From: a virus
Virus record (IMG/VR): IMGVR_UViG_3300031841_003468
Coordinates: 64,001-128,000 of that record
Strand: one strand, 5' to 3'
DNA: 64,000 nucleotides
Each line of letters starts with the position of its first letter. Positions within the stretch are counted from its first letter, which is position 1. The notes below the pieces were generated by a model. It was not told where the DNA came from. It did no database searches and saw only the letters and a program-made list of their open reading frames with translations. A program made the position numbers and the translations under genes. Shown in pieces: positions 5,660-28,959 of this stretch.

Positions 5660-5832
5660 TGTGGACACGTAGCAAAACAAAATTTCCTCACTGTTTTGCC
5701 GGATTTTACGATAAACAACAATTATATCCGTGTGTGCAAGGCGACTTGTATACATAATTATCGGATCTCCGATTAGTGTCATCGCTGTCTCCTCGGCCCG
5801 TATGCGTTGTTTAGCGTTACGGGCCTTTTTTT
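5660..5832 (+). ncRNA. candidate ~170-nt multibranch structured RNA (or attenuator leader)
   Basis: TTGTGTAA motif at 5645; stems 5664-68/5776-80, 5672-79/5692-99, 5700-04/5726-30, 5731-40/5745-54 (GCGA tetraloop, two G.U), 5760-64/5769-73; ends in terminator. Confidence 0.6.
5795..5832 (+). terminator. intrinsic terminator
   Basis: GGCCCGTA...TACGGGCC followed by T7. Confidence 0.85.
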
Positions 5833-5863
5833 ATGTCGCAACAATGAGTTATGGGAGTATCAC

Positions 5864-6550: not shown

Positions 6551-6581
6551 TATATTAGCCACCCTATAGTTCCTGATCAAT

Positions 6582-6615
6582 GCCCCGTTAACTTTCACGA
6601 GTTGCGGGGTTTTTT
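6582..6615 (+). terminator. intrinsic terminator
   Basis: GCCCCG...CGGGGT hairpin followed by T-run after matrixin. Confidence 0.75.
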
Positions 6616-6782
6616 GCTGGGTATAAGAAATCAGAAGGGGTCTATATATATTAGCTGAGACAGCCGATTTTGGCTGGGTCTTTGAAAGCAGAGGTGTCGT
6701 CTGTATATTTTAGGAAGTACACAAATTTGGCTAGGTATGAGAAAGCAGAGGTGTAGTCTTACAGACTTAGCTAAGACACCCC
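6612..6782. repeat. 3 x 57-bp degenerate tandem repeat (non-coding)
   Basis: units start 6612, 6669, 6726: TTTgGCTrGGTaTnaGAAAgCAGAgGtG..GTCT...TTAG. Confidence 0.8.
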
Positions 6783-7001
6783 CTATTCTGGGGGCATTCC
6801 GTGTAGTGGCAGCTCCTCGGCATACTCGATCTTACCTTCATGTATCAGGTAGTCAGTGTATGCAATGATCCAAGGCTGCTGTAGTGTGAATATACCCTCC
6901 AGCTTAGTGGTGCATAAACCTTCCCTATTCCATGTACCAGCACAACCTACATAATGAGATAGAGTCATAAGAGTATCAAATTGTAAATACATTCGTTTCA
7001 T
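6783..7001 (-). CDS. hypothetical protein
   Basis: GGAGG RBS, TAATG coupling. Confidence 0.65.
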   Translation of the reverse strand: MKRMYLQFDTLMTLSHYVGCAGTWNREGLCTTKLEGIFTLQQPWIIAYTDYLIHEGKIEYAEELPLHGMPPE

Positions 7002-7189
7002 TAGAATTTACCTCCTAATATGTAACCAATAGCAAAAACAAGAAATGGAAGAAGTATGAAAAAACCAGTCCACTGAATAAACGGGATAGGACTCTGCATA
7101 AGCAAGCAACCTAAACCACCAACCATATATGGCCAATAAAGACTTACAAGGGATAAACCCATTCTCTTAACTATATCACCATCACTCAT
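7001..7189 (-). CDS. small membrane protein
   Basis: two hydrophobic helices, GGAG RBS, promoter 7218-7245. Confidence 0.7.
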   Translation of the reverse strand: MSDGDIVKRMGLSLVSLYWPYMVGGLGCLLMQSPIPFIQWTGFFILLPFLVFAIGYILGGKF

Positions 7190-7278
7190 ATTAAATCTCC
7201 TCTCCCCTTTACACCCTATTATATATATTCATCGGCATAAGTCAATAGAAAACTTTAATAATTCCGTGACTATTTTTA

Positions 7279-7330
7279 CCCCCCTTTCGGGTGGCGGGGG
7301 TGCCGGGCCCCTTACCCCCCACTAAAGGGG
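7279..7330 (+). repeat. 52-bp GC-rich nested palindrome, copy 1
   Basis: CCCCCC TTTC GGGTGG CGGGGG TGCCGG GCCCCTTA CCCCCC ACTA AAGGGG. Confidence 0.95.
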
Positions 7331-7498
7331 TTCATAGGTATCACAATGCCCAACAGCTTCACCCACTATACCGAAGTCCTCAATAGTCTTTACCCGTGCC
7401 TTAAGTGCCGCCAGTATCACATCATCGGATAAGTCGAACGGCTCGCATTCGTCTGTCGTAACTTCAAAACATATATCTAAAACGTGTGTGTACTTCAT
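7322..7498 (-). CDS. hypothetical protein
   Basis: GGAG RBS before ATG 7498. Confidence 0.6.
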   Translation of the reverse strand: MKYTHVLDICFEVTTDECEPFDLSDDVILAALKARVKTIEDFGIVGEAVGHCDTYEPL

Positions 7499-7606
7499 CG
7501 TGTCATCTCCCAGCTTAAACACTCATTTTCCATAAGCTCATTCAGGTAGTTGTATACTTCCACACTATCAACATCGTCATGGTCAAACTCTAATTCAATT
7601 ATTACT

Positions 7607-7834
7607 TTAGCCATTTTGCAAATCCTTCAATGCTGGAATCGTAAACCTAGTTCTTAGTTGGTGCATAGCAGAAAGAATCTCCTGCTCAAGCTCAGCCGCC
7701 TCAGTTAGGCTATAGACATAATTAGCTACACCTAACTCAACAGTCTCATCAACTATCTGACAGCTAACATACTTACCGACGTAAACATCTTGGATGATGT
7801 TACCATCTACTTCTGTTGGTTCAATATATCTCAT
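7607..7834 (-). CDS. hypothetical protein
   Basis: AAGGA RBS. Confidence 0.65.
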   Translation of the reverse strand: MRYIEPTEVDGNIIQDVYVGKYVSCQIVDETVELGVANYVYSLTEAAELEQEILSAMHQLRTRFTIPALKDLQNG

Positions 7835-7838
7835 TTCC

Positions 7839-8252
7839 TTACTCCATAAAACTTAAAACTTTTTTATTATCGTAATATTTTGGCAGGTCTTTTTTGGCAA
7901 ATGGTTTTGCTATAGTTGGTTGGGTACGATCTCTTTCAACATTACAGTGTTCAACATCTTCACCTTTTGGTACATCGTACCACTCAATGGTGACCTTTCC
8001 TTCATAGTCTAGTACCTGAGCGTGAAAGTCAACGTCTATAATACTAACAATCCATTGCTTACCTAGTAGCTTGCTTTGACCATCGAAGGCTATGATGTCA
8101 ATAAATTCACCTTCCATGTCTATGTCGGTTGCGTACTCATACCATTTACTGCCAGCCATACCACCGCCGCAGCTCATCGTTATTCTTTTGCCGCCTTTGA
8201 TAACGGGCGTTTCTACTCGGCGTTGGAACTTGCTCCATAATCCAATTCTCAT
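7839..8252 (-). CDS. hypothetical protein
   Basis: AGGAG RBS, own promoter 8297-8325. Confidence 0.7.
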   Translation of the reverse strand: MRIGLWSKFQRRVETPVIKGGKRITMSCGGGMAGSKWYEYATDIDMEGEFIDIIAFDGQSKLLGKQWIVSIIDVDFHAQVLDYEGKVTIEWYDVPKGEDVEHCNVERDRTQPTIAKPFAKKDLPKYYDNKKVLSFME

Positions 8253-8326
8253 TTCAATTCTCCTAGTGAACTTCTGTAGGTGTGAACAACACCCCTATTA
8301 TACTCCAAATTACAATCCAAGTCAAG

Positions 8327-8590
8327 CTACTCATTGTAAAACCTCAGGTCATCATGATTGCCCATGTATCTGTTACGGCACTCAACTTCAATGTACTGAA
8401 TTTCATACCAGTCATAGTCTTCGCAGTGGTTTTCTAGTAACTGCTTTTGTTTCATTGCTCTATCCAATGAGCAGTAAGCAATACCAACACGGCAACCGTG
8501 ACTGTCGCCTGCATCAAACCCTTCAATCTGGTAGTACCTGAATAGGTCTGGCTTTCTTCTTCTGCTAGTAAGAACGTCTTTAGACTGCAT
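8327..8590 (-). CDS. hypothetical protein
   Basis: AAGGAG RBS, promoter 8629-8656. Confidence 0.7.
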   Translation of the reverse strand: MQSKDVLTSRRRKPDLFRYYQIEGFDAGDSHGCRVGIAYCSLDRAMKQKQLLENHCEDYDWYEIQYIEVECRNRYMGNHDDLRFYNE

Positions 8591-8690
8591 CGCAATCTCC
8601 TTATAGAATGTGTGTTTGTTACTCTCTTATTATATATTATCGGAGCATGAAGTCAAGAACTTTAAGGAATTTTTTGGGATTTATTTTTTA

Positions 8691-8742
8691 CCCCCCTGAT
8701 GGGTGGCAAGGGGGCCGGAGGCCTCACCCCCCAAGAGAGGGG
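8691..8742 (+). repeat. 52-bp element, copy 2
   Basis: CCCCCC TGAT GGGTGG CAAGGG GGCCGG AGGCCTCA CCCCCC AAGA GAGGGG. Confidence 0.95.
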
Positions 8743-8758
8743 TATTCCCATTTGGCAT

Positions 8759-8796
8759 AAAAAAGCGGCGGCCACCGCATTAAGAGGGTGACCGCC
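8759..8796 (-). terminator. intrinsic terminator
   Basis: GGCGGTCACC/GGTGGCCGCC stem then T6 on minus strand. Confidence 0.85.
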
Positions 8797-8983
8797 TAAA
8801 CAACACACTTTGGTAGGGCGATGGGGATTGACCTCAAACTTAATTGGGTCGCTCCCTCATCTTCGGCGGTGTGTGCCTACTAACCCCTGTTCGCATTATG
8901 CCTCCGGCAGATGGCTTGGGCTAGACGTTGAAGTATTTTCTCAGTCACCCAAATCCAAACCACCATCAGCCACCATTCTGACT

Positions 8984-10198
8984 TCATACTGCAAGCTCTC
9001 CCGCATAAATGGATTTCATATCTTTATCCGTGATCGTGTTCGACCGCTTAATAAGATTATCCCATCTACTGTCAGAAAAGTCAACCAGACTTCCACCAAT
9101 TTTGTCGAATCGGTTCCACTGGTCATTGCCCAGCGTTTGACCTGCACGAGTGATGGCGTTAACCAAACCGAATTGACTTCGGTGTGCTGACTCGAACTTA
9201 TTCCAAGCCTGTAGCGTTGCGGATGCTTGACGCTTGTCTAGCTTGAAATCCTTCGCAGCGGCGGCAACCACTTGATCCAGTCGAGCAGTACCGATTACAC
9301 GGCCACGTGTTTCCATCAATTTACGCATCCCTAGCGGAATGAGTGGCAACTGTGCTTCGATGTTCTCACGCAGTTTGATGGCCAACTCGTTGAGATCAAT
9401 TTCGCCGATGTGACGTTTCTTAATCTCTTTGCCTGCAACCTGTCCCCAGATGCAACCATTCAAGCAGATTGAACGGAATAGGCTAGGCTGTTGACCGATG
9501 CGGCGTTTGCCAATCTCACAGTTAGAGATTGAGACCATCCCACCGTAATCGCTGTCATCATCCTGACCGTAATCCATAACGGTATCAGGCAGTAGGACGT
9601 TACCGAAAATAGTATCCTCATCACCTCGCCAGTGAGACAGTCGCCCATTAGGTAGGTTTTTTTGTAACTGCTCAATGTACCAGCGATTGTCAATCGGTGC
9701 ATACTTATCAGTAACGAATGACCGCAAGGTAGAATCCGACTTATATGTACGCAGTAGGAATTCCTTGTCAGGGTCTACACGTCGCAGGCTATTAGCGGCC
9801 AAGTATTTCATCGCAACGGCATCCTGCTCATCACGCACGACACCCTTAGTGTCATTATTAAGTTTACCCAGCACTGTGCTAGATGGCACACCCGAACGGG
9901 TTGAGAACTGTTGTAAAGCCCAGTCGGTAGGACGATAGCATAAGCCATTGACCTCAAAGACAAACTTGCCATTGTCAACGGTTGGACGGATATCGCTAGC
10001 CTTAACCAGCAAGTCTTCACGATCCTCTACAGATCGTTGCATCAATTCCATGCCCTCATCATAGGACATTGTGGTACGCCACCAATCCTTGTGGACGTGT
10101 GTACCGTCAGCAAATCCAACTCCAGATTGGCCTTGCAGGTTCCGAACGAAAGAACCAGCGTTTTTGTCAGCAGTCATTTTGAGTGTTTGATATTCCAT
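8984..10198 (-). CDS. DUF932-family protein
   Basis: TDWALQQFS...LLRT...RSFVTDKYAPIDN...ISNCEIG...FRSICLNG pattern typical of DUF932. Confidence 0.75.
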   Translation of the reverse strand: MEYQTLKMTADKNAGSFVRNLQGQSGVGFADGTHVHKDWWRTTMSYDEGMELMQRSVEDREDLLVKASDIRPTVDNGKFVFEVNGLCYRPTDWALQQFSTRSGVPSSTVLGKLNNDTKGVVRDEQDAVAMKYLAANSLRRVDPDKEFLLRTYKSDSTLRSFVTDKYAPIDNRWYIEQLQKNLPNGRLSHWRGDEDTIFGNVLLPDTVMDYGQDDDSDYGGMVSISNCEIGKRRIGQQPSLFRSICLNGCIWGQVAGKEIKKRHIGEIDLNELAIKLRENIEAQLPLIPLGMRKLMETRGRVIGTARLDQVVAAAAKDFKLDKRQASATLQAWNKFESAHRSQFGLVNAITRAGQTLGNDQWNRFDKIGGSLVDFSDSRWDNLIKRSNTITDKDMKSIYAGELAV

Positions 10199-10274
10199 CT
10201 TAGGAACTCCAATTAGAAAAAAGTGTTGTTTGTTGTACTCTATTATATATTATCGACAGCCAAAGTCAAGAACT

Positions 10275-10430
10275 TTAATGGAAAAATTCCATAATATGTT
10301 TTTTAGCTGCGGTTGCCCGTGTTCGCTCTCGCCGGTTGCGGCGGTCTTGGTGTACGCCTGCACCGCTACGGTGTTCGTTGTGACCCTTCTCGATCTTCCA
10401 CTGTGGTTTTACGTTGAGCTTGATTTTCAT
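10275..10430 (-). CDS. small basic protein (51 aa)
   Basis: manually translated MKIKLNVKPQW...GAGVHQDRRNRRERTR; GGAG RBS; promoter 10474-10501. Confidence 0.65.
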   Translation of the reverse strand: MKIKLNVKPQWKIEKGHNEHRSGAGVHQDRRNRRERTRATAAKKHIMEFFH

Positions 10431-10534
10431 TGGATTGTCTCCGGTTAGAATAGTGTGTCCTTGTTACTCTTCTATTATACGTATCGGACATAGCAAGTCA
10501 AGAACTTTAGCCTTTTTTTCGGGATTTATTTTTA

Positions 10535-10586
10535 CCCCCCTAACGGGTGGCAGGGGTGCCGGAGCCCTCACCCCCCTTCCGAGGGG
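10535..10586 (+). repeat. 52-bp element, copy 3
   Basis: CCCCCC TAAC GGGTGG CAGGGG TGCCGG AGCCCTCA CCCCCC TTCC GAGGGG. Confidence 0.95.
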
Positions 10587-11041
10587 ATCAGCTCTCAGCC
10601 TTCTTGGTTTGGGTTAAACATTTCCCCACTGTTGTTCCATGTTCTCGAATATGTCACTTGAATTATATATCACATCGACCAAATCCCATAGAACATAGTT
10701 TTTCAATTCTTCGAGACTATACGATTCCATTTCTTTCCTTGCGTATAGTTCGCATTTGCTTATGTGCTTTTCTTTCTCACTCATTTTCATCTCCTATCAC
10801 ATCGTCCCAGTCTGTTTCAAATGCTTCTCTGTCGTTCTTGTAATAATCGTATTGATTTTCATAGAAGTGTTGAACAATAGTATCTAAGTCGGCAGAGTCG
10901 GTAATTTCTTGAGCTAGTCTTTCAATGTTTTCTTCGCTATGTTTAACTTTAATCATCTGAATATTCCTTTAATGAAATCAATTAGGTAATCGTGCAATGC
11001 GTCAAGGGTGTCTAAGTATTCCTGTTCCATAGTCTGCTTCC

Positions 11042-11455
11042 TCATGATGATTGCCCCTCATCTTTATATTGAACCCCACTAGCATCAATGCCGCCTTTGA
11101 GTTGGATGGTCACGAACTTAGCGGACTTAACCCGTCGCTCTGTGTCACATGCAACAAACGAATCGTACTTGTAGGGATTATAGGTTACCTTGGTAGTGTC
11201 TAGTGTGTAGTTGCCATTCTCGTCACGGTGGTAGTCGTTTACCATCTCACCAGCTACACCGGCGTGAACATTCTTCTTCTTCTCTCGTAGTACCTTGGCA
11301 CGTCCTGCTTGGCCTACTCTGAATTCAGCATCAGCAAGATTGACGTTATGGTAATGGCCGATGACCTTGCCTGTCTTTCTGCTACGAACCGAGAAAAGTT
11401 TCTTGTGAAGATTGAAGTAAACAAAAACTGAATTGTCTGTTAATCGCTTTGCCAT
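11042..11455 (-). CDS. conserved phage hypothetical protein
   Basis: VYFNLHKKLFSV...GRAKVLREKKKNVHAGV...YNPYK motif widespread in phages; GAGGAG RBS. Confidence 0.8.
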   Translation of the reverse strand: MAKRLTDNSVFVYFNLHKKLFSVRSRKTGKVIGHYHNVNLADAEFRVGQAGRAKVLREKKKNVHAGVAGEMVNDYHRDENGNYTLDTTKVTYNPYKYDSFVACDTERRVKSAKFVTIQLKGGIDASGVQYKDEGQSS

Positions 11456-11650
11456 GATCGTGGCTCCTCTTGTGTGTGTGTTGTAAAAAGAAGATAGCTT
11501 ATCCAACTTACGTGAACACCTGTCGTGGCTAGGCCGATACTAGGCTGGTTGATTATGTCACTCGGTTATGGTTTTGGACTACACCGTCACTTGTAGCCTC
11601 GCTCTCTTACTCTTCTATTATACCATATCGGCATAAGATGTCAAGCAACT

Positions 11651-11962
11651 TTAAGCAGATTCCGCAAAAAGTTCAGCTAATTCATCTGAGCCCATCTGTG
11701 CCTCTAAGCATCGGATGATTAGACATGCAACAATCTTCATGCCGGATGACATGGTAGCGTGCATTTCTGGATCGTCGTATTCTTCTGTGGCCTGCTGTAC
11801 ATAAGCAGGAACAAAGTCAACTAAGATTTCGTAAAGCTCTTTGTTACCGCCACTATGTAGCAACTGTAGAGTATCATAGACAAAAGCTCCGTGGCCTTTA
11901 ACTACAAGCTGGTCAACTAATGCGTCGCATACTTCTGGCGACACTGGTGGGATGTGTGACAT
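11651..11962 (-). CDS. hypothetical protein
   Basis: AGGAG RBS, promoter 12001-12028. Confidence 0.7.
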   Translation of the reverse strand: MSHIPPVSPEVCDALVDQLVVKGHGAFVYDTLQLLHSGGNKELYEILVDFVPAYVQQATEEYDDPEMHATMSSGMKIVACLIIRCLEAQMGSDELAELFAESA

Positions 11963-12071
11963 AACTGTCTCCTGTGAATGTGTTGTTTCTTACTCCCTCT
12001 ATTATATACATATCGGCTATCAGGTCAACAAAAATCCAGTAAATCCGGTCAGAAAGCAGGAATTATTTTTA

Positions 12072-12123
12072 CCCCCCCAATGGGTGGCAAGGGGCCCGGC
12101 GACCTCACCCCCCCTTTCGGGGG
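12072..12123 (+). repeat. 52-bp element, copy 4
   Basis: CCCCCC CAAT GGGTGG CAAGGG GCCCGG CGACCTCA CCCCCC CTTT CGGGGG. Confidence 0.95.
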
Positions 12124-12131
12124 GCATTGGC

Positions 12132-12380
12132 CTACAACACAATTTCACTAATCACTAGGTCGTTAGGGTTATAGCTAAAATACGCCTCGGTGTCATTCTT
12201 GACGTGTAGCGGCCATGCGTCCGTGGGCATTGAGCCATTCAAGAATTCTATAATATGATCCAATCGGCACTTCGCCATTCTTGCCGCCTCTTCTATACTA
12301 TCGGCTTTCACTTCGCCGTTAGTGTAGTTGCAATACAAGCCGCCGCTTGTCTTCAGGTGGTAACTATATAATCTCATCAT
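12132..12380 (-). CDS. hypothetical protein
   Basis: ATGA coupling, GGAGG RBS. Confidence 0.65.
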   Translation of the reverse strand: MMRLYSYHLKTSGGLYCNYTNGEVKADSIEEAARMAKCRLDHIIEFLNGSMPTDAWPLHVKNDTEAYFSYNPNDLVISEIVL

Positions 12381-12601
12381 GCAACCTCCAAGTTCTGGAC
12401 ATATGCCTCGATTTCCAAACCATGATAACCGCCATGAAATTTACATGCCTCACTAGGATTTACTATCCTGCAAATATATTTGTTATCAGGTAATTCTTTC
12501 AGCATTACTAGGTCTTGGCCTTCTTCTAGTAATGCCATTCGGCTGCAATATGCTTGGTCATAAAATCCGTTATGCCCTGCTCTGATTTTTAGTTTCTGCA
12601 T
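12377..12601 (-). CDS. hypothetical protein
   Basis: AAGGAG RBS. Confidence 0.65.
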   Translation of the reverse strand: MQKLKIRAGHNGFYDQAYCSRMALLEEGQDLVMLKELPDNKYICRIVNPSEACKFHGGYHGLEIEAYVQNLEVA

Positions 12602-12689
12602 TGTAATCTCCTTGCGATTGCTTCGCCTAGTCTTCTAACTACTTTTTCAGTAATCCATACCCATAGAATCATTAGCCACCATTCACTTT

Positions 12690-13484
12690 TCATTTTGCAC
12701 CCGCTTTCAGGACTTGCAATGCTTTTGATGCGTCGCTTCCCTTAGGCTGTGTACCATGAATCAACAATGCGAATGATTGATTCCGTTTTGATGGTTCGGC
12801 GGCGTGAGTGTCATTGCTGTCAATCTCTAAGCCTTTTGCGTCGGCTTCTTCTTGGCTGAACACCACAACAGCTTCCCGCAAATTGTGAGTGTCGATTAGG
12901 TGGTCTTCTCGACCGCCACGGCTAGCAGTGAGTACAATGTTAGGAATACTATTTACCAACTCCATATTCTTTACCCAATATCGTAATGATTTGGTATAAG
13001 CATAGAACAGAACAGTGGGATTAGCTTGTGCTAACAATAGCCACGCCTTGAAGTATTCTTCATTGAACATATCACCGGCAACGTGAATGCGAACAATACC
13101 TACATTCTTAGGTAACTTGGATTGTAGTATACCTGCCATCTCTTCAGCAGTTTTCACTGATTGAATTGCGTCGGTGTTGGCTTTACGTCGATTGTATACC
13201 GTAGGCATTAATGCTTCTTGTGATGCACTGAAACAGCGGAACTTTGTATTGGCACCGTCTTTAACTTTGACTTTTGCATTGCCACTTTCAGACAGTCCAC
13301 CAATCTCAACTACCTTAGATGAACACTCGGAAGCAAAGGGACAAGTCCAACCACTCAATAGGTCGAGTGAATAAATCTTTCGCTTGTCCTGCAAGAAGTT
13401 ATCAACCAATTCACTACTCTCACGTAGCTTTTTAGTTTTAGCGTTTTCGTTACTGAATTTTAGGTCGAGATTAGAATAATCCAT
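12690..13484 (-). CDS. GP88-like (radical-SAM-like Cys cluster) protein
   Basis: TCPFASEC...CF, VRIHVAGDMF, P.VLFYAYTKS motifs. Confidence 0.75.
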   Translation of the reverse strand: MDYSNLDLKFSNENAKTKKLRESSELVDNFLQDKRKIYSLDLLSGWTCPFASECSSKVVEIGGLSESGNAKVKVKDGANTKFRCFSASQEALMPTVYNRRKANTDAIQSVKTAEEMAGILQSKLPKNVGIVRIHVAGDMFNEEYFKAWLLLAQANPTVLFYAYTKSLRYWVKNMELVNSIPNIVLTASRGGREDHLIDTHNLREAVVVFSQEEADAKGLEIDSNDTHAAEPSKRNQSFALLIHGTQPKGSDASKALQVLKAGAK

Positions 13485-13547
13485 GATAGGTTCCTTAAGA
13501 GGTGTGGTGTGTTGTATGTCTCTATTATATATTATTATCGGCCAAAG

Positions 13548-13709
13548 TCAAGCGGAAACTTTAAGTTTTTTACCAAGTATTTTTAGGGGTACTACTTTGT
13601 GATGAGTCTGCTTCAGGGTACCAGCTTTAAGGCAACCAGTAAAAACATCGGCGTGCCGATTGAGGCTTGCATTGTGTCGGAATTGTGCTGCTTGTCGTTT
13701 AGTTATCAT
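13548..13709 (-). CDS. hypothetical protein
   Basis: AGGAG RBS before ATG 13709. Confidence 0.6.
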   Translation of the reverse strand: MITKRQAAQFRHNASLNRHADVFTGCLKAGTLKQTHHKVVPLKILGKKLKVSA

Positions 13710-13808
13710 TTTTGTCTCCTGTGTTGTTACCCTTATATTATATACTATCGGCATGTGGGGTCAATAGAGTTTAGCAAAAAACAGAAGAAAATAGGGATTT
13801 ATTTTTAC

Positions 13809-13860
13809 CCCCTCTTGTGGGGGGCGAGGGTGCCGGAGACCTTACCCCCCTTTCGAGGGG
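13809..13860 (+). repeat. 52-bp element, copy 5
   Basis: CCCCTC TTGT GGGGGG CGAGGG TGCCGG AGACCTTA CCCCCC TTTC GAGGGG. Confidence 0.95.
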
Positions 13861-13873
13861 TGTTGGCCACTCC

Positions 13874-14248
13874 TTACCACCAGCTATGATACACTACGTC
13901 ATAACCCTGCTTGATTGCTGCACGGGCATTGCGTATAAACTCACGGTCTTGCTCTGCGTAATGATCGTCAGAGTTTGAACCAAAGAAGAATCCTGATGTC
14001 TCCGGTAGTGCTGCTTCATCAAGACTTTTCTCCAGAGCGTCCAAGTCCTCTAGTGTTAATTCCAAGTCAACACAATTAAACTCATCCTCTCCACCCTTCT
14101 CATAGTAAAGGTTTGCCATCCACCCCTCAAGGTTAGGATGCTTTCGCCAGTAGGCTAGTTCCTTACTATCTTCATAGTAGACATAACCATCTTCGTCTCG
14201 TTTTGCTTCGCCTTGTCGTGCTGTTGCGTACTGATCGAGTCCGATAAT
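13874..14248 (-). CDS. conserved phage protein (GLDQY...YWRKH family), non-ATG start or start-disrupted
   Basis: GLDQYA...YWRKHPNLEGWM...FNC...YHSWW; expected ATG replaced by ATT ATC, AAAGGA 8 nt upstream. Confidence 0.7.
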   Translation of the reverse strand: MIGLDQYATARQGEAKRDEDGYVYYEDSKELAYWRKHPNLEGWMANLYYEKGGEDEFNCVDLELTLEDLDALEKSLDEAALPETSGFFFGSNSDDHYAEQDREFIRNARAAIKQGYDVVYHSWW

Positions 14249-14352
14249 ACCACCAGTCCTTTCTGCTAAATTGCAATAAAATGGGGTTAAAAAAATGGGA
14301 TTTGAACATCTTTTGTGTATATATATTATAGACATATAGCAAAGGAAGTCAA

Positions 14353-14868
14353 ATGAAAACTCATAAAAAATGTACTACTTGTAAAGAAACTCTAGAAATT
14401 ACTAACTTTTGGAAAGATAAGTCTAGAGGTGATGGTTATAATTGTAGATGCAAATCGTGTGCTAAGGCTAAAAATAAGATCTACATGAAAACATATGCTA
14501 AAAAATACTATCAGGATAATAAGGACAAGATTACTGAACAGCGTAAGGCTAGATATAATAATAACCCTGCTGTGCGTGTTGCCAACAGTATGCGTTGCCG
14601 TATATATAATACTATCGTTAAAGGTTATAAAAGTGCTACTACATTTGAATTGATTGGATGTGATGCTGATCAATTAGTTTCCCATATAGAGAAACAGTTT
14701 ACAGAGGGAATGAGTTGGGATAACTATGGGGAATGGCATATCGACCATATCAAGCCCATTTGTTCGTTTGACATACTAAACCCTACTGAACAGCTTAAAT
14801 GCTACCATTACACCAATCTACAGCCTCTATGGGCACATGACAACCTAAGTAAAGGCGGTAAGTATTAG
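14353..14868 (+). CDS. HNH homing-type endonuclease, antisense insertion
   Basis: CTTC..CKSC N-terminus; MSWDNYGEWHIDHIKP...HYTNLQPLWAHDNLSKG. Confidence 0.9.
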   Translation: MKTHKKCTTCKETLEITNFWKDKSRGDGYNCRCKSCAKAKNKIYMKTYAKKYYQDNKDKITEQRKARYNNNPAVRVANSMRCRIYNTIVKGYKSATTFELIGCDADQLVSHIEKQFTEGMSWDNYGEWHIDHIKPICSFDILNPTEQLKCYHYTNLQPLWAHDNLSKGGKY

Positions 14869-14974
14869 TGTTGTTGAATACTTATATTATATAGATTTGC
14901 CGACTGTTGTCAAGCCCTTTTTGCCCGGTATCTAAGGCGTAGAAGTCGTCCCGCTGGATCAGCTTGGACATCCC

Positions 14975-15160
14975 CTATTTGTGAAGTGGGATGTATCCTG
15001 TGTTGTTCCAGTATGTGACCGCAAACTTCACGTATGCGGTGAGGTTGTCCCCTTTGTAACCGTACCTATTATACACACGGTCAAGCCATTGGTCAACAGC
15101 TTCATTTATTTCCCCGTCGTGGCCTAATGCTACAGATAGCTTTTCCAATAATTCTTTCAT
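14975..15160 (-). CDS. hypothetical protein
   Basis: AAGGAG RBS. Confidence 0.65.
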   Translation of the reverse strand: MKELLEKLSVALGHDGEINEAVDQWLDRVYNRYGYKGDNLTAYVKFAVTYWNNTGYIPLHK

Positions 15161-15172
15161 CGTATTTTCTCC

Positions 15173-15388
15173 TTAGCCCCAATCGCCGCATTCAGCAACA
15201 TCGACCACGCCGACCCTATCCATCGTTTCCCGTGTGAACTCCCCACGATAATCAGGGTGCCACGGCACGAAGACGACGAGCCTATCGCCGTCAACCTCCA
15301 GAACCTTGATGGAGTCGTGTTCGGGATGAATCCCGTTGGCGTGAGCGGTGGCGTTGGCGGCGGTGTCGAAGAAGATTTCAAAGTGCAT
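15173..15388 (-). CDS. hypothetical protein
   Basis: AAGGA RBS, promoter 15429-15456. Confidence 0.65.
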   Translation of the reverse strand: MHFEIFFDTAANATAHANGIHPEHDSIKVLEVDGDRLVVFVPWHPDYRGEFTRETMDRVGVVDVAECGDWG

Positions 15389-15504
15389 CTGATTTTTCCT
15401 TAAAAGGTCTCTTGTGTGTTATGTCTCTATTATACACTATCGGCGTAATATGTCAATAGTCTTTAGCCATAATTTCAGAAAAAGATGAGAAAGTTTTTAG
15501 AAAC

Positions 15505-15556
15505 CCCCTCTGTCGGGGGGTTGGCGGTCGGGCACCCTGACCCCCTATTGGTGGGG
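15505..15556 (-). repeat. 52-bp element, copy 6 (inverted)
   Basis: reverse complement CCCCAC CAAT AGGGGG TCAGGG TGCCCG ACCGCCAA CCCCCC GACA GAGGGG, with flanking T-tract also flipped. Confidence 0.9.
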
Positions 15557-15581
15557 GGAAAATAATTGCATAAAAAATAGT

Positions 15582-15614
15582 AAAAAGGCCACCAGCCTAT
15601 TGACTGATGACCTT
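15582..15614 (-). terminator. intrinsic terminator
   Basis: AGGTCATCAG/CTGGTGGCCT stem then T-run on minus strand. Confidence 0.75.
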
Positions 15615-15718
15615 CCACACAAAAGAAATTTCCAAGCACACAAGGCAGGGGTTAAGCCGTCACCCTTTTCATCCTTCATCAAGGAGGCTTTGACTGGACT
15701 GCCCGATGTGCAACCTTA

Positions 15719-16036
15719 CTAACTCTTGAACGCCGCCTTGATTCGGCCAAGCAATCCAACACCGGCATCTTTGACAGCCGCCATTCGGCCATCGTAGAAT
15801 GCTTTGGCGGTACCGTCTTCCAGTTCGACGGTGTACAGATATTGTGATCTGTCGCCCTTGATGTTGCCATATCGCAGAGTCTGGTTAGACACTGGATGAG
15901 TTGCCAAGTCACGAACTCCCGTGACAGTACCGACGTAAGTCTCGGCGTTGGCTACGTAATCACTTACCAAAGTACCGTTGATAAGTCCGACCTTTTTGTC
16001 TTTGAGATAGGTAAACTCGATCTTCTTTCCTAGCAT
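15719..16036 (-). CDS. hypothetical protein, possibly WYL/SH3-like
   Basis: GGAGG RBS before ATG 16036; IEFTY...KAFYDGRM pattern loosely WYL-like. Confidence 0.6.
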   Translation of the reverse strand: MLGKKIEFTYLKDKKVGLINGTLVSDYVANAETYVGTVTGVRDLATHPVSNQTLRYGNIKGDRSQYLYTVELEDGTAKAFYDGRMAAVKDAGVGLLGRIKAAFKS

Positions 16037-16037
16037 A

Positions 16038-16313
16038 TTAAATGCCTCCATTGAATGGTGATTCTTCTTTAGTGTGATTTTCGGGATTGCTGTAGAAAGA
16101 ACGCAACCATTCAATACGTTCTTCGCTACCTGCTTTCCCTAGTAGTCCGTCGTTGGACTCAGGTAATTCTCGCTTGCCAATATTCCTACCGGCAGAGCGT
16201 GGTTTGATTGCCCACAGATCGTTTCCGTTTTCGTCGATGGTGACGTTGAACGCTTCAAAGCATTGAATGTCTGTGAGTGCTACTTTTCCGTTTACTTCTG
16301 GGCAGATGCTCAT
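16038..16313 (-). CDS. hypothetical protein
   Basis: AAGGA RBS before ATG 16313. Confidence 0.65.
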   Translation of the reverse strand: MSICPEVNGKVALTDIQCFEAFNVTIDENGNDLWAIKPRSAGRNIGKRELPESNDGLLGKAGSEERIEWLRSFYSNPENHTKEESPFNGGI

Positions 16314-16373
16314 TTTGATTTCCTTAGTGTTATCGTTTTGTATACTACTATTATGCATATTTTGCATATGGTG

Positions 16374-16685
16374 TCAAGCAGAATAAACCTTTACTTTCCA
16401 GTTTTTTCCTGAATAGTCCATATAGTTATCGCCGTCACTATATACAGTAACTGAGCCGTCGTAACCATATGATGATGGCTGTGCTTGTGCGTCGTCATCT
16501 TGGACTGGATGCCAGCGGTCACCACAGCAACCACAGTCGATTCCATCGGCAACACCGTTAAAGTAGATGCCTTTATCTTGTGCTATGCTGTTAGCCTGAT
16601 CAGCGTTATCAGCTTGAATGAATACCAATGGAGTGCCAGCAAAAGCACCGCCTGAATTGTTTTGTCTGAATTTGAACCAGCTCAT
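16374..16685 (-). CDS. conserved phage protein (QNNSGG...DCxCCGDRW)
   Basis: FRQNNSGG, GIYFNGV..GIDCGCCGDRW motif widespread in phages. Confidence 0.8.
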   Translation of the reverse strand: MSWFKFRQNNSGGAFAGTPLVFIQADNADQANSIAQDKGIYFNGVADGIDCGCCGDRWHPVQDDDAQAQPSSYGYDGSVTVYSDGDNYMDYSGKNWKVKVYSA

Positions 16686-16876
16686 AGTTCTACTCCGTTG
16701 TCGATTGCAAAATCTGTAAGGTGTCGTTTTTGATTCCAAAGTGATTCCAAGCCTTTGACAGCTTGCTTTTCTTCAACGCTCTTAGCGTTGGCAAGTCGGA
16801 CTAGCTTGTCCTCGATACGTAGGTTGATCTTGAATAGTTCCAGTTTGACATTTTGTTTTGTGATAGTTTTGACCAT
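16682..16876 (-). CDS. hypothetical protein (paralog of 20357..20527)
   Basis: AAAGGA RBS; KLELFK motif. Confidence 0.7.
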   Translation of the reverse strand: MVKTITKQNVKLELFKINLRIEDKLVRLANAKSVEEKQAVKGLESLWNQKRHLTDFAIDNGVEL

Positions 16877-17149
16877 TGTTTTTTCCTTTGTGTTACGCTC
16901 TTATTATACCATACTTATCGGCAAATGTCAATAGCAAAATTCAATTATTTTCAAACTTTTTTATAAGCCAGCCGACTGGTAAACCTATAGCCGGAATGAT
17001 CACAAACATTACAAGAGCTTCGTTTTCGAGTGCCCACTGATAAAGATCCATTTTTTTCTCCTTTGTTCTTACCTCTCTATTATACATTATCGGCATGTGA
17101 AGTCAATAAACTTTAGGCAAAAAACCGGAAATAGGCAATCTTTTTTTTA

Positions 17150-17182
17150 CCCCCCTCGTGGGGGGCGAGGGTGCCGGGGCCT
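17150..17182 (+). repeat. 52-bp element, copy 7 (right box lost)
   Basis: CCCCCC TCGT GGGGGG CGAGGG TGCCGG GGCCT. Confidence 0.9.
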
Positions 17183-17223
17183 TTTTTTCCTTAACTGGCC
17201 CAGTCTTGGCGTATCGGGTTAGA

Positions 17224-17556
17224 CTAATTCCTGAACAGCTTAACACGTCTGCCGGTCATGCCATTGTGCATCTTCCAAAATTCAGCACTGTGGTGGTCGG
17301 CGTTTCTTTTGGCTCGATCATATTCACTTATGCCGCCAGCGTTAACTAGTGAGTTTATAATTATAGCTCCGCAGGCTATGAAAAACAGAACTCCAGCAGC
17401 CACAGCCAAATTGCTTTTGACCCGTTCGGCGTTGTGATACTTCCAATCGGCAATGTAGTCTAGAGTATTGACGATTGCAGGCTTAACGCAAATGATGGCC
17501 CAAATTGCGTCGAGTGTTCTTTCTCCGATTCCTTTTGTGTATCGTGTAGGTCTCAT
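17224..17556 (-). CDS. hypothetical membrane protein
   Basis: GAGG RBS, one TM segment. Confidence 0.65.
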   Translation of the reverse strand: MRPTRYTKGIGERTLDAIWAIICVKPAIVNTLDYIADWKYHNAERVKSNLAVAAGVLFFIACGAIIINSLVNAGGISEYDRAKRNADHHSAEFWKMHNGMTGRRVKLFRN

Positions 17557-17668
17557 TATTTTAATCCCTCGTAGATGAATGCCCCTGTTACAATTATAAA
17601 CCCGCCAATTAGCAAAGTCAAGAATATTCTGTCAATCAGTTTCTCTCGTCGTCGTCTGGTCATTGTTT

Positions 17669-17926
17669 TTACTCCTCGTCTCGGATGACGATTTTGTTAA
17701 AGTCCTCTGAGTAGTTGACAACGGCAAAGCCTTTTGGCCCGATACAGATCGAGATCAGTTTGTCGCCATGTTTGTTTGAGTAGATGTCTATGCTTCTGGT
17801 TCCCTCTGCAGGTATGTCCTTGTGGCTCATGCTTGCTGCAGGCAGTTGCATTACATCGGAAAAGTCTGTATGAATTTCGCCTTGTCCGTAGTATTTGATC
17901 GCTGTGTTGATTCTGTCCTGATCCAT
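17669..17926 (-). CDS. hypothetical protein
   Basis: GGAG RBS. Confidence 0.65.
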   Translation of the reverse strand: MDQDRINTAIKYYGQGEIHTDFSDVMQLPAASMSHKDIPAEGTRSIDIYSNKHGDKLISICIGPKGFAVVNYSEDFNKIVIRDEE

Positions 17927-18132
17927 TATTCAGTCTCCAGTTGGTTTTTGAGTTGGTCAATTTTGTCTAGTGCATCTTCGAGTAAGCATTTATCGTAGGC
18001 GTTGGTGCAATCTTCGATAATGTCCACTATTGTCGCTGCACAGTTTTCGTATGCTTCTAGTTTTTGTTCAGGTGTCATAGTTCTTTTCTCCTGCTAATAT
18101 TATATACATCCAGCCGATTGGGTCAAGGGGTT

Positions 18133-18354
18133 TTATTCCCCTTTTGTACCGTACTTTTCAAAGTACCGTCGAGTGGCATCGACCTTAGATTGTGGAACTA
18201 GTTCCACGGCTACAACTTCCCAATGCACTTTAGAGTTGTACTTGTACATTGTTTCGCCGTGCTCATTCTGGATCAGGCGATCAGCACTGACCATTCTGAA
18301 ATTCCATTCTTGACCGTTTCGTGGGTGAACTGCTTTTACGTCGTATTGTTTCAT
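18133..18354 (-). CDS. hypothetical protein
   Basis: AAAGGA RBS, own promoter. Confidence 0.7.
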   Translation of the reverse strand: MKQYDVKAVHPRNGQEWNFRMVSADRLIQNEHGETMYKYNSKVHWEVVAVELVPQSKVDATRRYFEKYGTKGE

Positions 18355-18422
18355 CTTGATTTCCTTTTGTGTTGTGTTGTCTTGTATACCTATATTTTAA
18401 CATAGCTTCAGCCAATGTCAAA

Positions 18423-18659
18423 TTATTTTTTGCACTTTTCAGGATTTACTTTGACAACGTCTGACACTCTTGTCAAAACGTGTCGGCAAACTCCGCACAA
18501 GTAGCAGGTGTATTGAATCAATCCGCTTTTACCTACGGTTAGATCAGACACGTCAACCGAGCGGCTTACAATGACCCAGCCATCACCACGTGCTGCCCTG
18601 TGAGTTAGGCGAATCGTTTCTTGGCCTTCGATGGCTTGTTTGAATGCTTCTAGTTTCAT
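18423..18659 (-). CDS. hypothetical protein
   Basis: GAGGA RBS; CYLCGVC. Confidence 0.7.
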   Translation of the reverse strand: MKLEAFKQAIEGQETIRLTHRAARGDGWVIVSRSVDVSDLTVGKSGLIQYTCYLCGVCRHVLTRVSDVVKVNPEKCKK

Positions 18660-18721
18660 CTTATTTCCTCTTGTGTTGTGTTGTTTTGTATGTCTATATT
18701 ATACCATAGGGGTGTGACACA

Positions 18722-18934
18722 TTAGGTCACTGGAACGTACTTTCCTACAATTTTTTTCCACTTTTTCATAACATAATCGTAGCTACCCTGAGCTTCGACG
18801 GTTCCCATAGATGAGCCGGTTGAGCCTACCCAAGTGGTTATGGCGTACTTACCCAAGCGATTGCATCGCACTAGGTGACGTGTTCCAGTTGGGGTTTCCT
18901 TAGTCATTCTGATTTCGTATGCGACGTATGCCAT
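18722..18934 (-). CDS. hypothetical protein
   Basis: AAAGGA RBS, promoter 18972-18999. Confidence 0.7.
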   Translation of the reverse strand: MAYVAYEIRMTKETPTGTRHLVRCNRLGKYAITTWVGSTGSSMGTVEAQGSYDYVMKKWKKIVGKYVPVT

Positions 18935-19123
18935 TTTGTTTTTCCTTTGTGTTGTTTCCTCTTATGTCTATATTATATACATCGGCATTCAAAAGTCAAT
19001 AACTTTAATCGTTTTTTTATTTTTTCAGGGCCGGTTGAGCCTATAAAAATAGGGATTTGAGGGCAAAAGAAAGTTTTTTTTATTTTATAGTGGACACCTA
19101 GCATTTGCGTCATAGTATTTTTC

Positions 19124-19156
19124 CCCCACCTCTGGGGGGTGAGGGTGCCGGGCCCT
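19124..19156 (+). repeat. 52-bp element, copy 8 (right box lost)
   Basis: CCCCAC CTCT GGGGGG TGAGGG TGCCGG GCCCT. Confidence 0.9.
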
Positions 19157-19233
19157 TTTAACCCATAAGTCAATAGATATATATAAAAACGGTCAGATTT
19201 CCGCTATTAATTTTTGAGAGGGTTTAGCCCGAT

Positions 19234-19446
19234 TCAGTCGGCTTGGACATGCCTAAGGTCTGAGAACATTCTAATCATGTCTACCCATTTGTTTCGGTCG
19301 TAGTCAGTTAGATTTATTTGATATGCTTCAGCACCTCTGTTGGCTGCTTTGTGAAAGCCTGCTTCTGTTGTGCATCCACGGCTATCACTCCAACGGATAG
19401 CATACTCCAAAGCCCAGTTCAATATTGTTTGTTCTCTACTTACCAT
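19234..19446 (-). CDS. hypothetical protein
   Basis: GGAG RBS, TAATG coupling. Confidence 0.65.
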   Translation of the reverse strand: MVSREQTILNWALEYAIRWSDSRGCTTEAGFHKAANRGAEAYQINLTDYDRNKWVDMIRMFSDLRHVQAD

Positions 19447-19676
19447 TATACTAACTCCATGTTGTATTCGTGTTGTGCTGCTGCCAGTTCTTTAGTGTTG
19501 AATACTGGTATTCCATCAATGCATAGTTCATAATGTTCACAGTGGTTATTGCCTACCAACTCGATCAGTCGGCCTTCTACTTCTGCTGATTGAATAATAA
19601 AGAAATCCATTCTTACTTCCCTTTGAATGTAGCTAATACGTTTGTTAACTCTGTACCTATGAATCGCCTTGCCCAA
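19446..19676 (-). CDS. hypothetical protein (start uncertain)
   Basis: ORF; internal ATG (MDFFII) with AGGGA RBS is the likelier start. Confidence 0.5.
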   Translation of the reverse strand: MGKAIHRYRVNKRISYIQREVRMDFFIIQSAEVEGRLIELVGNNHCEHYELCIDGIPVFNTKELAAAQHEYNMELV

Positions 19677-19772
19677 CGTGCTTGCCTATAGTGTGCATAC
19701 CATTGACCCTGCTTAGTGTTTGGGTTTCGTCGTCGTCGTTTGTTTCCGTCTATCTGTCTCATAGCTTACTCC

Positions 19773-20030
19773 CTAGCTGATTGACTGCCATTTACAGTTG
19801 CACTCGTTGCATACTGTTGTAGTTGTTCGGCTGTACTTGCCAACCTTAGTAACTACCGTGTCATACTTGCGACGTGTCTCTTGTCGTTCCTTGCGGATCA
19901 AGCCAATGCCGTTTGGGTTTGGCTCATTGTAGATAATGGTTGCTTGATACTCAGTTCCACAGTTGTTGATGTGGTTAGTGTATTCTGCTGGTTCAGTTGT
20001 CCATCCGTTCATTGTTCCGAGATTCTTCAT
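19773..20030 (-). CDS. hypothetical protein
   Basis: AAAGGA RBS before ATG 20030; C-terminal CNECNC. Confidence 0.7.
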   Translation of the reverse strand: MKNLGTMNGWTTEPAEYTNHINNCGTEYQATIIYNEPNPNGIGLIRKERQETRRKYDTVVTKVGKYSRTTTTVCNECNCKWQSIS

Positions 20031-20099
20031 TTTCTTTTCCTTTGTGTTGTTGTCTCTTGTTACTCTTATTATAGACATGCCGACTGATAAGTCAAGAGA

Positions 20100-20291
20100 T
20101 TATTTTACATTTTTTTTGATCCACTCGTTATCATGGTCAACTGATCTTTGATAGTGGTCAATCATCTCTTGCAACTTTTCAACAGTGTAGTAGTCATCGG
20201 TTTGCATGTTACTCAATCGCTTTTGGAAGTAGTCACGCTGGCTAAGGTTCTGTTGGTGTAAGACGTATAGTGCTGATTCTTGATATTTCAT
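20100..20291 (-). CDS. hypothetical protein
   Basis: AAAGGA RBS, promoter 20319-20347. Confidence 0.7.
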   Translation of the reverse strand: MKYQESALYVLHQQNLSQRDYFQKRLSNMQTDDYYTVEKLQEMIDHYQRSVDHDNEWIKKNVK

Positions 20292-20356
20292 TTTCTTTTC
20301 CTTTTCTCTTATGCCCTTATTATATTATATATATCGGCCATTGTCAAGAGAATTCT

Positions 20357-20527
20357 TTAACCATTTATGATTTTTTTTAGAATATCTTTTCTATCCCATA
20401 ACAACTGTAATTCGTTGTAGATACAGTTTTTATTCCACTGTCCTAATTCGTTAGCGTGTTCGACAATCTTCTTTTCGATTTGTCGGTCAGTCTTGAACAG
20501 TTCTAGTTTGGCTTCGTTCTTAGTCAT
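20357..20527 (-). CDS. hypothetical protein (56 aa, paralog of 16682..16876)
   Basis: manually translated MTKNEAKLELFKTDRQIEKKIVEHAN...; AAAGGA RBS. Confidence 0.7.
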   Translation of the reverse strand: MTKNEAKLELFKTDRQIEKKIVEHANELGQWNKNCIYNELQLLWDRKDILKKIING

Positions 20528-20636
20528 GTTGACTTCCTTTAATTCATTAATTGTTATACTCTAAGTATATACTATATATCGTCAAATGTCAATAGCTACA
20601 TGAGATAATTCTGAGAAAAAACCAAAGTATTTTTTA

Positions 20637-20670
20637 CCCCCCTAGTGGGTGGTGAGGCCGCCGGGCCCTT
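20637..20670 (+). repeat. 52-bp element, copy 9 (right box lost)
   Basis: CCCCCC TAGT GGGTGG TGAGGC CGCCGG GCCCTT. Confidence 0.85.
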
Positions 20671-21031
20671 CTTTCCCTTTAGTTTAATTAAGTTAAATGA
20701 CCAATAATTGTTTAGAGGTCATTGGCACATTTCTGCACCAACTAAACCAATAATAACTGCACTAATGATAAGAGTAGTAATCAACATATCTAATTCTCCT
20801 AAAGGTTAACTTGTCTCTGATATTATATATATCGACAAACTAGCAGATAGACATTAGATAATTCTTAGATTATTCTTAGATAGTTGTCACTAGTAGATGG
20901 ACACTTGAATATGTGCCTATAGGTGGGTGGGGTTTTTTGTTCATTTAGACAGCCCCCTCTGTTGGGGGGAAAGTGTAATGGGGTACATTCGCAATGAGCT
21001 CACACAATTCTATATGTATAAGCTAAACCTT

Positions 21032-28899: not shown

Positions 28900-28959
28900 T
28901 CTTGTGTATTTTATTTGGTAATCATATTATCAATTAGATTGATCTGGAGAGTGGACAAA

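Follow-up and report, generated by a model that had tools for sequence, protein, structure and literature searches.

The early (host-takeover) region of a siphovirus-like marine phage, represented by the 153,711-bp virus record IMGVR_UViG_3300031841_003468 (here G000, rated 99% complete), contains nine copies of a GC-rich element that in its full form spans 52 bp, with two palindromic boxes on either side of a 20-bp center. The window in which these elements were found is the 64,000-nt stretch covering bases 64001-128000 of the record, and coordinates refer to this window unless another sequence is named. The explanation that best accounts for the data is that the elements are the GC-rich structured part of composite intergenic cassettes in a densely promoted region of co-directional genes. 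We favor, tentatively and as a possibility that falls somewhat short of probable, the hypothesis that they serve as punctuation of transcription units, in which attenuation or termination and a protected mRNA 3' end are coupled to the next promoter. Such cassettes would resemble the promoter early stem-loops (PeSLs) of T4-type phages, and could also provide homology for gene shuffling.

Anatomy and transcriptional context of the elements

A scan with the box pattern CCCCCC-N4-GGGKGG, allowing up to one mismatch, gave 30 strand-hits in the window against 0.06 expected from shuffled sequences, an approximately 500-fold over-representation. The nine elements lie where an earlier sequence-only reading of the window had placed them (Table 1, in which the first coordinate of each element is the start of its left box). 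The architecture it described was also recovered: the second box begins 36 bp after the first in six full copies, giving a 16+20+16 geometry, the sixth copy is inverted, and the last three lack the right box. Stretches of 30 bp with at least 77% G+C occur genome-wide only in eight of the nine elements, and 13 of the 14 CCCCCC runs in the genome fall within elements. In a scan of the whole genome, box-type sites were confined to positions 6779-20954 of the window, so that the claim of no copies outside 7-21 kb stands, except that two lone single hairpins, at 6779 and 20954, had been missed. The CCGG center, around which a dyad had been proposed, is not invariant and is absent from copy 6 and from many copies in related phages.

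The local genes are encoded on the minus strand, and in that direction each element comes after the end of a gene and before a strong promoter. On the plus strand, an A precedes the boxes, mostly within TTTTTA, and the position of this T-tract ahead of the hairpin had been taken as an argument against terminators. Because the local genes are on the minus strand, the T-tract is rather the A/T-rich upstream region of the next promoter. The argument is thus not supported, as the plus strand is non-coding here and some members of the element family carry a U-tract directly after the element.

The distance from the stop codon to the element is 7-38 nt in five copies, and in E1 the stop codon falls inside the first hairpin. 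E2 and E6 come after a longer 3' region with a canonical terminator, made of a hairpin and a U-tract, at its end, while E8 and E9 are located 73 and 359 nt after the nearest upstream stop. Just before E2, at 8759-8984 on the minus strand, a 404-aa gene has ~240 nt of non-coding sequence downstream of it, with the canonical terminator GCGGTGGCCGCCGC and U6 at its end. On the downstream side, 33-48 nt of A/T-rich DNA separate the element from the promoter in the window (124 nt for E8), and when relatives are included the A/T-rich stretch between the element and the -35 box is 22-48 nt long.

All nine elements precede a promoter with 11-12 of the 12 sigma70 consensus positions, as judged by consensus match only, and the downstream order is TTGACt-N8-CCGAT-N4-TATAAT, a conserved leader, a ribosome-binding site and ATG. 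These promoters belong to an array of 26, of which 15 have a conserved (C)CGAT motif in the spacer and nine follow an element, with two to four promoters and two to six genes in each inter-element interval. Given 26 strong promoters and only two or three canonical terminators within the array, the nine elements are the main candidates for punctuation. A role as activator sites, also suggested by the sequence-only reading, is unlikely because the distance to the -35 box is variable (22-48 nt) and shows no helical phasing. Such phasing was hinted at by the values of 33/34 and 43/44 nt in the window, but the wider set does not fit it.

To describe the element at the level of RNA, we collected 38 unique copies from the window and its relatives, each oriented by its downstream promoter. 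On the transcribed strand the element consists of a hairpin CCCCUC-N4-GGGGGG, a 20-nt GC-rich center and a second hairpin CC(A/C)CCC-N3-4-GG(U)GGGG. Among the 456 stem pairs in these copies, all Watson-Crick pairs are C:G in a single orientation, with zero flips and zero A:U pairs, while the loops vary freely with 14-20 different sequences. At the fifth pair of the first hairpin, 30 of the 38 copies have U.G on the transcribed strand, and the non-Watson-Crick pairs of this hairpin comprise 35 G.U against 5 A.C on that strand. In the second hairpin, a bulged U (GGUGGGG) or an A.G mismatch (CCACCC) is usual, and positions G4, G5, C9, C10, C16 and C17 of the 20-nt center are kept, with CCGG often absent.

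Compensatory covariation in the 38 copies is nil in the stems and ambiguous in the center, and folds with two local hairpins or one long hairpin are therefore indistinguishable. In most copies the minimum-free-energy fold is one nested hairpin that contains internal loops and ~17-20 pairs, and whole-element folds of the six full copies on the minus strand range from -26 to -35 kcal/mol. The transcribed strand is more stable than its complement in 30 of the 38 copies, by -3.4 kcal/mol on average. The tails on the transcribed strand are of the UAAAAA type in 27 of the 38 copies, and in ~8 of the 38 a U-tract of the GUUUUUGAA type directly follows the element. Copies of the latter kind fold as a long hairpin followed by a U-tract, which is the form of an intrinsic terminator; a canonical U-tract after the hairpin is found in none of the nine window copies.

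These folds bear on an alternative hypothesis, namely that in read-through transcripts the whole 52 nt forms a long imperfect hairpin at which the RNA is processed. A double-strand-specific RNase would cut the hairpin, much as at the RNase III sites of the T7 early region, or cleavage would occur beside the AU-rich tail; either would separate the mRNAs of the units and leave protective 3' hairpins behind. The single nested hairpin in most folds, the intercistronic position and the A-rich tail, which avoids termination as would be expected of a site meant for read-through, all agree with this idea. Yet each element has its own downstream promoter, so that processing is not needed for downstream expression, the covariation does not favor the long fold over two local hairpins, and a search of the region against Rfam revealed no family near threshold. 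We regard this hypothesis as quite improbable.

Table 1. Elements and other features of the window, with positions in window coordinates.
Feature	Position	Strand	Remarks
E1	7279..7330	-	full two-box copy; stop codon of open reading frame 7322-7498 inside the first-hairpin loop; -35 box of promoter 7245-7218 33 nt downstream
E2	8691..8742	-	full copy; canonical hairpin and U6 terminator 8778-8765 22 nt upstream; promoter 8656-8629 34 nt downstream
E3	10535..10586	-	full copy; 27 nt past the stop of 10614-10784; 33 nt ahead of promoter 10501-10474
E4	12072..12124	-	full copy; 7 nt past the stop of 12132-12377; 43 nt ahead of promoter 12028-12001
E5	13809..13860	-	full copy; 13 nt past the stop of 13874-14335; 44 nt ahead of promoter 13764-13737
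E6	15505..15556	+	full copy, inverted relative to the other eight; still 48 nt upstream of minus-strand promoter 15456-15429; terminator-like hairpin and U-tract (15598-15586) upstream on the minus strand
E7	17150..17185	-	half copy with promoter-proximal box and center; A-rich stretch replaces the distal box; 43 nt ahead of promoter 17106-17079
E8	19124..19160	-	half copy; 124 nt ahead of promoter 18999-18972
E9	20637..20672	-	half copy; 44 nt ahead of promoter 20592-20564
Lone C5/G5 hairpin	6779..6794	-	overlaps the stop of open reading frame 6783-7001; distal end of the array
Lone box-type hairpin	20954..20969		~60 nt beyond the stop of the HNH endonuclease gene (21032-21415)
Array of 26 sigma70-like promoters	4817..20592	-	11-12 of 12 consensus positions
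Large terminase	26896-28899	+	
Portal	28915-31056	+	
Tape measure, 2196 aa	55219-61809	+	

Conservation, spacing and breakpoints in related phages

Approximately 600 contigs in IMG/VR encode a large terminase that is 65-70% identical to that of the window phage, whereas the nearest cultured large terminases, from Bacillus siphoviruses, are only 26% identical. A near-identity DNA search against 50,697 phage records gave no match, and no relatives were obtained through a GP88-like early protein. The element family, with the 16+20+16 geometry and the same position relative to a CGAT-type promoter, is present in G006, G008, G010 and about 25 contigs. G006 is a 145-kb record with eight copies at 5191-15567 and G008 and G010 are element-bearing fragments, while the contigs are of low GC content and come from marine metagenomes, several of them from TARA Oceans. 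One of the contigs, L141, is 87% identical to the window, and orthologs of E9 are located 5-6 kb upstream of the large terminase gene in L023, L030, L033 and L050.

The element was not found in five long relatives, G001-G005, that were identified through the large terminase, but these still have the promoter type with CGAT in the spacer. In the sister lineage represented by G001 (138 kb), the same slot upstream of the promoter is filled by a different, non-homologous double-hairpin module. Here, an 8-9 bp hairpin that contains A and U is followed by a GC hairpin, a long U-tract and the promoter, with a spacing of 1.07-1.94 kb. In L087 (G001:C1), a 79-nt module is repeated upstream of early promoters at 720-790, 2662-2740, 3735-3813 and 4996-5074, with the hairpin ACGTAAGTC...GGACTTACG, then a GC hairpin and a long U-tract. 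The promoter features of the array at 4817-20592 (minus strand) are kept clade-wide in G001 and G003-G006, including the lineage without elements, which is unusual for plain sigma70 promoters and may indicate an extra factor or a discriminating feature.

High-GC hits that the DNA patterns gave in collections of viral, metagenome and bacterial sequences were dismissed as chance matches. An exact match to the element pattern was also obtained in L147 (CAXFOQ010000069.1, 5266 bp), a contig from TARA data that had been assigned to a Flavobacteriales metagenome-assembled genome; this match may be due to chance. Mis-binning is a likelier explanation than a host signal, because the promoters of the clade are of the TTGACA/TATAAT type and not of the Bacteroidota type.

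The even spacing emphasized in the sequence-only reading is statistically real. Gaps in the window range from 1412 to 1974 bp, their coefficient of variation (CV) being 0.11, and a spacing this even was obtained in 2 of 100,000 trials (P = 2e-5) in which 7 of the 21 inner strong promoters were drawn at random with the end elements fixed. The spacing is likewise non-random when compared with uniform placement in G006 (677-1999 bp, CV 0.32, P = 0.003) and in L116 (CV 0.21, P = 0.0002). In a pooled set of 25 non-redundant intervals, the lengths are 0.67-2.06 kb with a CV of ~0.3, one apparent gap of 2.96 kb being explained by a missed copy. The regularity is thus real, with the window as its tightest example, and it is not inherited with the genes: interval length is kept though the number of genes per interval ranges from two to six, and homologs of the window genes are found in different inter-element intervals in G006. 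It is plausible that a lower bound is set by recombinational loss of close direct repeats and an upper bound by harmful unterminated read-through.

Regular spacing could also be expected of periodic landmarks for a stepwise or transcription-driven entry of the first-injected DNA. The region adjoins the packaging genes and is transcribed away from them. Judged by tailed phages in general, it could thus enter the capsid last and the host cell first. Nothing else in the sequence bears on this idea, the record is without a terminal repeat, and we know of no precedent for periodic DNA-entry signals. We consider it scarcely plausible.

We also examined where homology ends between related phages. BLAST comparisons of relatives against G006 gave 42 distinct internal endpoints, of which seven fall no more than 10 bp from an element, where 2.1 would be expected (P = 0.005). 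Endpoints recur at 9619, 11104 and 15567 in G006; most endpoints are found away from elements, some of them at other promoters or gene boundaries. In L119, L126, L140 and L144, the interval to the right of the G006 element at 9619 is joined via one element to the sequence left of the element at 15516, and L141 contains a single element with the upstream flank of E5 on one side and the downstream flank of E3 on the other. In L140, one single box is flipped.

The sequence-only reading had suggested recombination sites that delimit interchangeable cassettes. In an evolutionary sense the enrichment of breakpoints agrees with this suggestion, but the intervals are not conserved cassettes when the window is compared with G006, and most breakpoints are elsewhere. 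Its remark that no recombinase is visible can be extended to the whole genome: tyrosine and serine recombinases (PF00589 and PF00239) are absent from G000, as judged by searches in which control genomes scored positive, as are any integrase or resolvase and the Y1 transposase (PF01797). Recombination would therefore be general and homology-driven, and the breakpoint pattern matches homology-driven shuffling as in the PeSLs, and not a dedicated site-specific system.

A stronger version of this idea is that the elements are primarily recombination or mobility elements, either targets of a nuclease or recombinase that delimit cassettes or selfish palindromic repeats akin to miniature inverted-repeat transposable elements (MITEs) or repetitive extragenic palindromes (REPs). 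The chimeric junction inside an element, the inverted E6, the flipped box in L140 and the presence of two nuclease genes in the region (endonuclease VII-like at 14353-14868 and HNH at 21032-21415) could be interpreted in this way, along with the breakpoint enrichment itself. However, the enzymes expected of such a system, including the REP-associated Y1 transposase, were not detected in the genome, only a minority of the breakpoints map to elements, and the genes of an interval are not passed on together. L141 and G006 both bear elements, but L141 lacks the endonuclease VII-like gene and the first 30 kb of G006 contain no homolog of it. The elements are also without the GTAG/CGTC tag. Furthermore, the copies are restricted to one region and to one slot relative to the promoters, unlike those of a freely transposing repeat, and this hypothesis is in our view very improbable.

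Possible roles: punctuation of transcription or a site in DNA

On the transcribed strand, each cassette runs from the last stop codon of a unit through the 52-nt element and 22-48 nt of A/T-rich, UP-element-like DNA to the promoter, followed by the conserved leader, the ribosome-binding site and the ATG. If the elements punctuate transcription, the hairpins would form in the RNA at the 3' end of each ~1.5-kb unit, possibly as one long imperfect hairpin instead of two. It could attenuate or terminate read-through from the two to four strong promoters upstream, and provide the upstream mRNA with a 3' end that is resistant to exonucleases. Copies with a U-tract may act as true intrinsic terminators and those followed by UAAAAAUA as leaky pause, processing or stability sites, after which the next promoter would restart transcription. 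The repeated cassette could in addition be a homology patch, where general recombination shuffles small early genes between related phages.

The anatomy and position of the elements, their conservation in a phage clade, the regular spacing, the enrichment of breakpoints and the analogous terminator module of the sister lineage are direct observations, whereas we infer the formation of the element in RNA, the attenuation and the stabilization. Support comes from the canonical terminator in the corresponding slot of the sister lineage, from the U-tracts in a minority of the copies and from the scarcity of other terminators in the array. The more stable fold of the transcribed strand and its excess of G.U over A.C pairs in the first hairpin point the same way.

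Several observations weigh against this hypothesis. The tails of 27 of the 38 copies have an A-tract of the UAAAAA type where a terminator needs U, and these copies are thus not canonical intrinsic terminators in either direction. Upstream of E2, E6 and elements of the G006 7135 type, a canonical terminator is located at a distance of 12-25 nt, so that the element would seldom be transcribed and a role in RNA would be redundant there. The identity of the C:G stems without flips and the never-changing 36-bp register exceed what is needed for hairpin stability, and the center is without clear covariation. The strand asymmetry in stability is weak evidence because it is largely due to one conserved position, and E6 is inverted, with a weaker fold on the sense strand. 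The hypothesis leaves the regular spacing, the fixed register and the invariant C-run/G-run stems unexplained.

The same features raise the possibility that the element is a site in DNA, at which a host or phage protein recognizes the C6-N4-G6 boxes and the GC center, either in double-stranded form or extruded as a cruciform. Such a site could function as a roadblock or insulator between tandem strong promoters, as a set of operators for early shutoff, or as a topoisomerase or gyrase site that relieves torsion every ~1.5 kb. Invariant C-runs and G-runs with no compensatory change in 456 pairs, a free N4, half-sites 10 bp apart and a 16+20+16 register that is fixed across diverged genomes are all features of this kind. 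The elements are also retained close behind canonical terminators, a position in which few transcripts would include them, and in E. coli the bacterial interspersed mosaic elements (BIMEs), which consist of palindrome pairs and a linker, have been reported as gyrase targets and attenuators in work cited by PMC8266576. Moreover, the spacing is bounded (0.7-2.1 kb) and kept while the gene content between the elements changes, which suggests a property that depends on length.

Against a site in DNA speak the near-constant orientation relative to transcription, the better fold of the transcribed strand, the unphased distance to the -35 box and the ordinary terminator in the same slot of the sister lineage. 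Nor is there a candidate protein: ParB_N and HTH_3 (Cro/CI-type) proteins were not found in G000, and phyletic profiling gave no convincing partner. The 34 proteins that are common to G000 and the element-bearing G006 and absent from the element-lacking G001 include a dUTPase, glycosyltransferase-like proteins, a DenV-like glycosylase, an extracytoplasmic function (ECF)-type sigma factor and small proteins without known function, and the divergent ECF-type sigma factor is the only evident DNA-binding regulator among them. A host factor could still be the element-binding protein. Taken together, we find a DNA-level site rather doubtful.

In the form of this idea that makes most of the spacing, the elements would be length-measuring landmarks in the DNA, as sites for a topoisomerase or for a bridging or roadblock protein of the host or phage or as extruded cruciforms, that split the hyper-transcribed and first-expressed 15 kb into segments of ~1.5 kb with topological or transcriptional insulation. 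This seems unlikely to us. If true, it would explain why sequence, geometry and spacing are conserved amid freely exchanged genes across a widespread marine clade.

Genomic setting and comparison with known systems

To the right of the elements, a plus-strand tailed-phage structural module extends rightwards from ~22.9 kb of the window; it is siphovirus-like and includes a tape measure protein. Minus-strand genes extend leftwards from 22.7 kb, and those at 4.8-21 kb are small, mostly 50-150 aa, and mostly without a known family. The HNH endonuclease gene (minus strand) separates the early array from the packaging genes. Only two genes within the minus-strand early array are on the plus strand. 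One is the endonuclease VII-like gene, which matches PHROG 1035 (E = 6e-27) and no Pfam family. It is carried by a segment at ~13531-15393 that is missing from the 87%-identical L141, and probably encodes a homing endonuclease of the free-standing type. The second, at the array's far end (5864-6550), encodes a matrixin-type zinc metallopeptidase (PF00413, E = 5e-29).

The ECF-type sigma factor of 163 aa is encoded outside the window, at 11158-11649 of G000 on the minus strand, and matches Sigma70_r2 (E = 1e-12) and, more weakly and below the cut-off, Sigma70_r4_2. The G000 and G006 versions are only 24% identical, and no counterpart was detected in G001.

Some short palindromes are missing from the genome. 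GCGC and CGCG do not occur in the 153,711 bp of G000, against 67-250 expected, and CCCGGG and GCCGGC are also absent, against 10-13 expected. This is a very strong signature, in the sequence, of what would be restriction-site avoidance; GCGC and CGCG are present in relatives such as G006. We considered the CCGG center of the element as a restriction-related feature and rejected this idea, as CCGG and GGCC occur genome-wide at roughly the expected frequency. The two ends of the G000 record (1-1512 and 152570-153711) share diverged direct repeats of 924 bp at 88% identity and 157 bp at 97% identity, with no exact terminal repeat between them, and possibly represent paralogous genes or an imperfectly assembled terminal redundancy.

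The closest known architecture is that of the PeSLs of T4-type myoviruses, an analogy that the sequence-only reading had also drawn. In these cassettes, a sigma70 early promoter is combined with an AT-rich upstream region and a stem-loop of G-runs and C-runs, and the stem-loop lowered the expression of a reporter as a strong terminator would (Arbiol et al., 2010, PMC2839356; Comeau et al., 2014, PMC4122927). Both systems place a strong sigma70-like early promoter, together with AT-rich DNA upstream and a stable stem-loop of G/C runs, among small genes without known function in an early region that is plastic, and the breakpoints of indels and replacements between related phages are located at the cassettes.

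The window phage is, however, unrelated to the T4-type myoviruses, being siphovirus-like with a large terminase that is ~26% identical to that of any cultured phage, and the likeness is therefore an analogy and not homology. The systems also differ in that the element is a 52-bp double hairpin with a fixed 16+20+16 geometry upstream of the AT-rich region, whereas the PeSL stem-loop is single and usually inside or overlapping the promoter. Furthermore, only nine of the 26 promoters carry an element here, at even spacing, and most element copies are without a U-tract.

Likewise, the REPs and BIMEs of enterobacteria and pseudomonads are GC-rich palindromes that are paired across a linker, reside in intergenic 3' regions and have conserved stem mismatches and bulges. 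They are credited with attenuation, mRNA stabilization and gyrase binding (PMC8266576; PMC3733652). The phage elements differ from them in having neither the GTAG/CGTC tag nor an associated Y1 transposase, and in that the boxes are direct copies of a palindrome and not a REP/inverted-REP pair. Every element copy is also tied to a promoter, and the nine copies are found in one 14-kb phage region as compared to hundreds across a chromosome.

Intrinsic (Rho-independent) terminators also have a GC-rich hairpin directly after the end of a gene, and in a minority of the element copies and in the G001 module this is followed by a U-tract. Unlike such terminators, most element copies are followed by an A-tract, the hairpins are paired with a conserved spacer, and it is the stem sequence that is conserved and not just the pairing. 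The stoperators of cluster A mycobacteriophages and the RNase III sites in the early region of T7 are other examples of repeated sites or structures between co-directional genes that modulate read-through or mRNA processing. The window phage differs from these in that no repressor was found, there is no sign of lysogeny (no integrase) and no sequence similarity.

The phage group to which the window belongs is common in marine metagenomes, including those from TARA Oceans, yet none of its relatives is in culture. Repeats of a single regulatory cassette make up the framework of its early region. The principle of the PeSLs, in which composite terminator/promoter cassettes insulate and shuffle small genes, may thus be extended from the T4-like myoviruses to an unrelated siphovirus-like lineage, which suggests evolutionary convergence. 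The PeSL model does not account for the fixed geometry, the invariant C6/G6 runs or the conserved spacing of ~1.5 kb, and these features provide a testable handle on how very dense early transcription is organized in phages.

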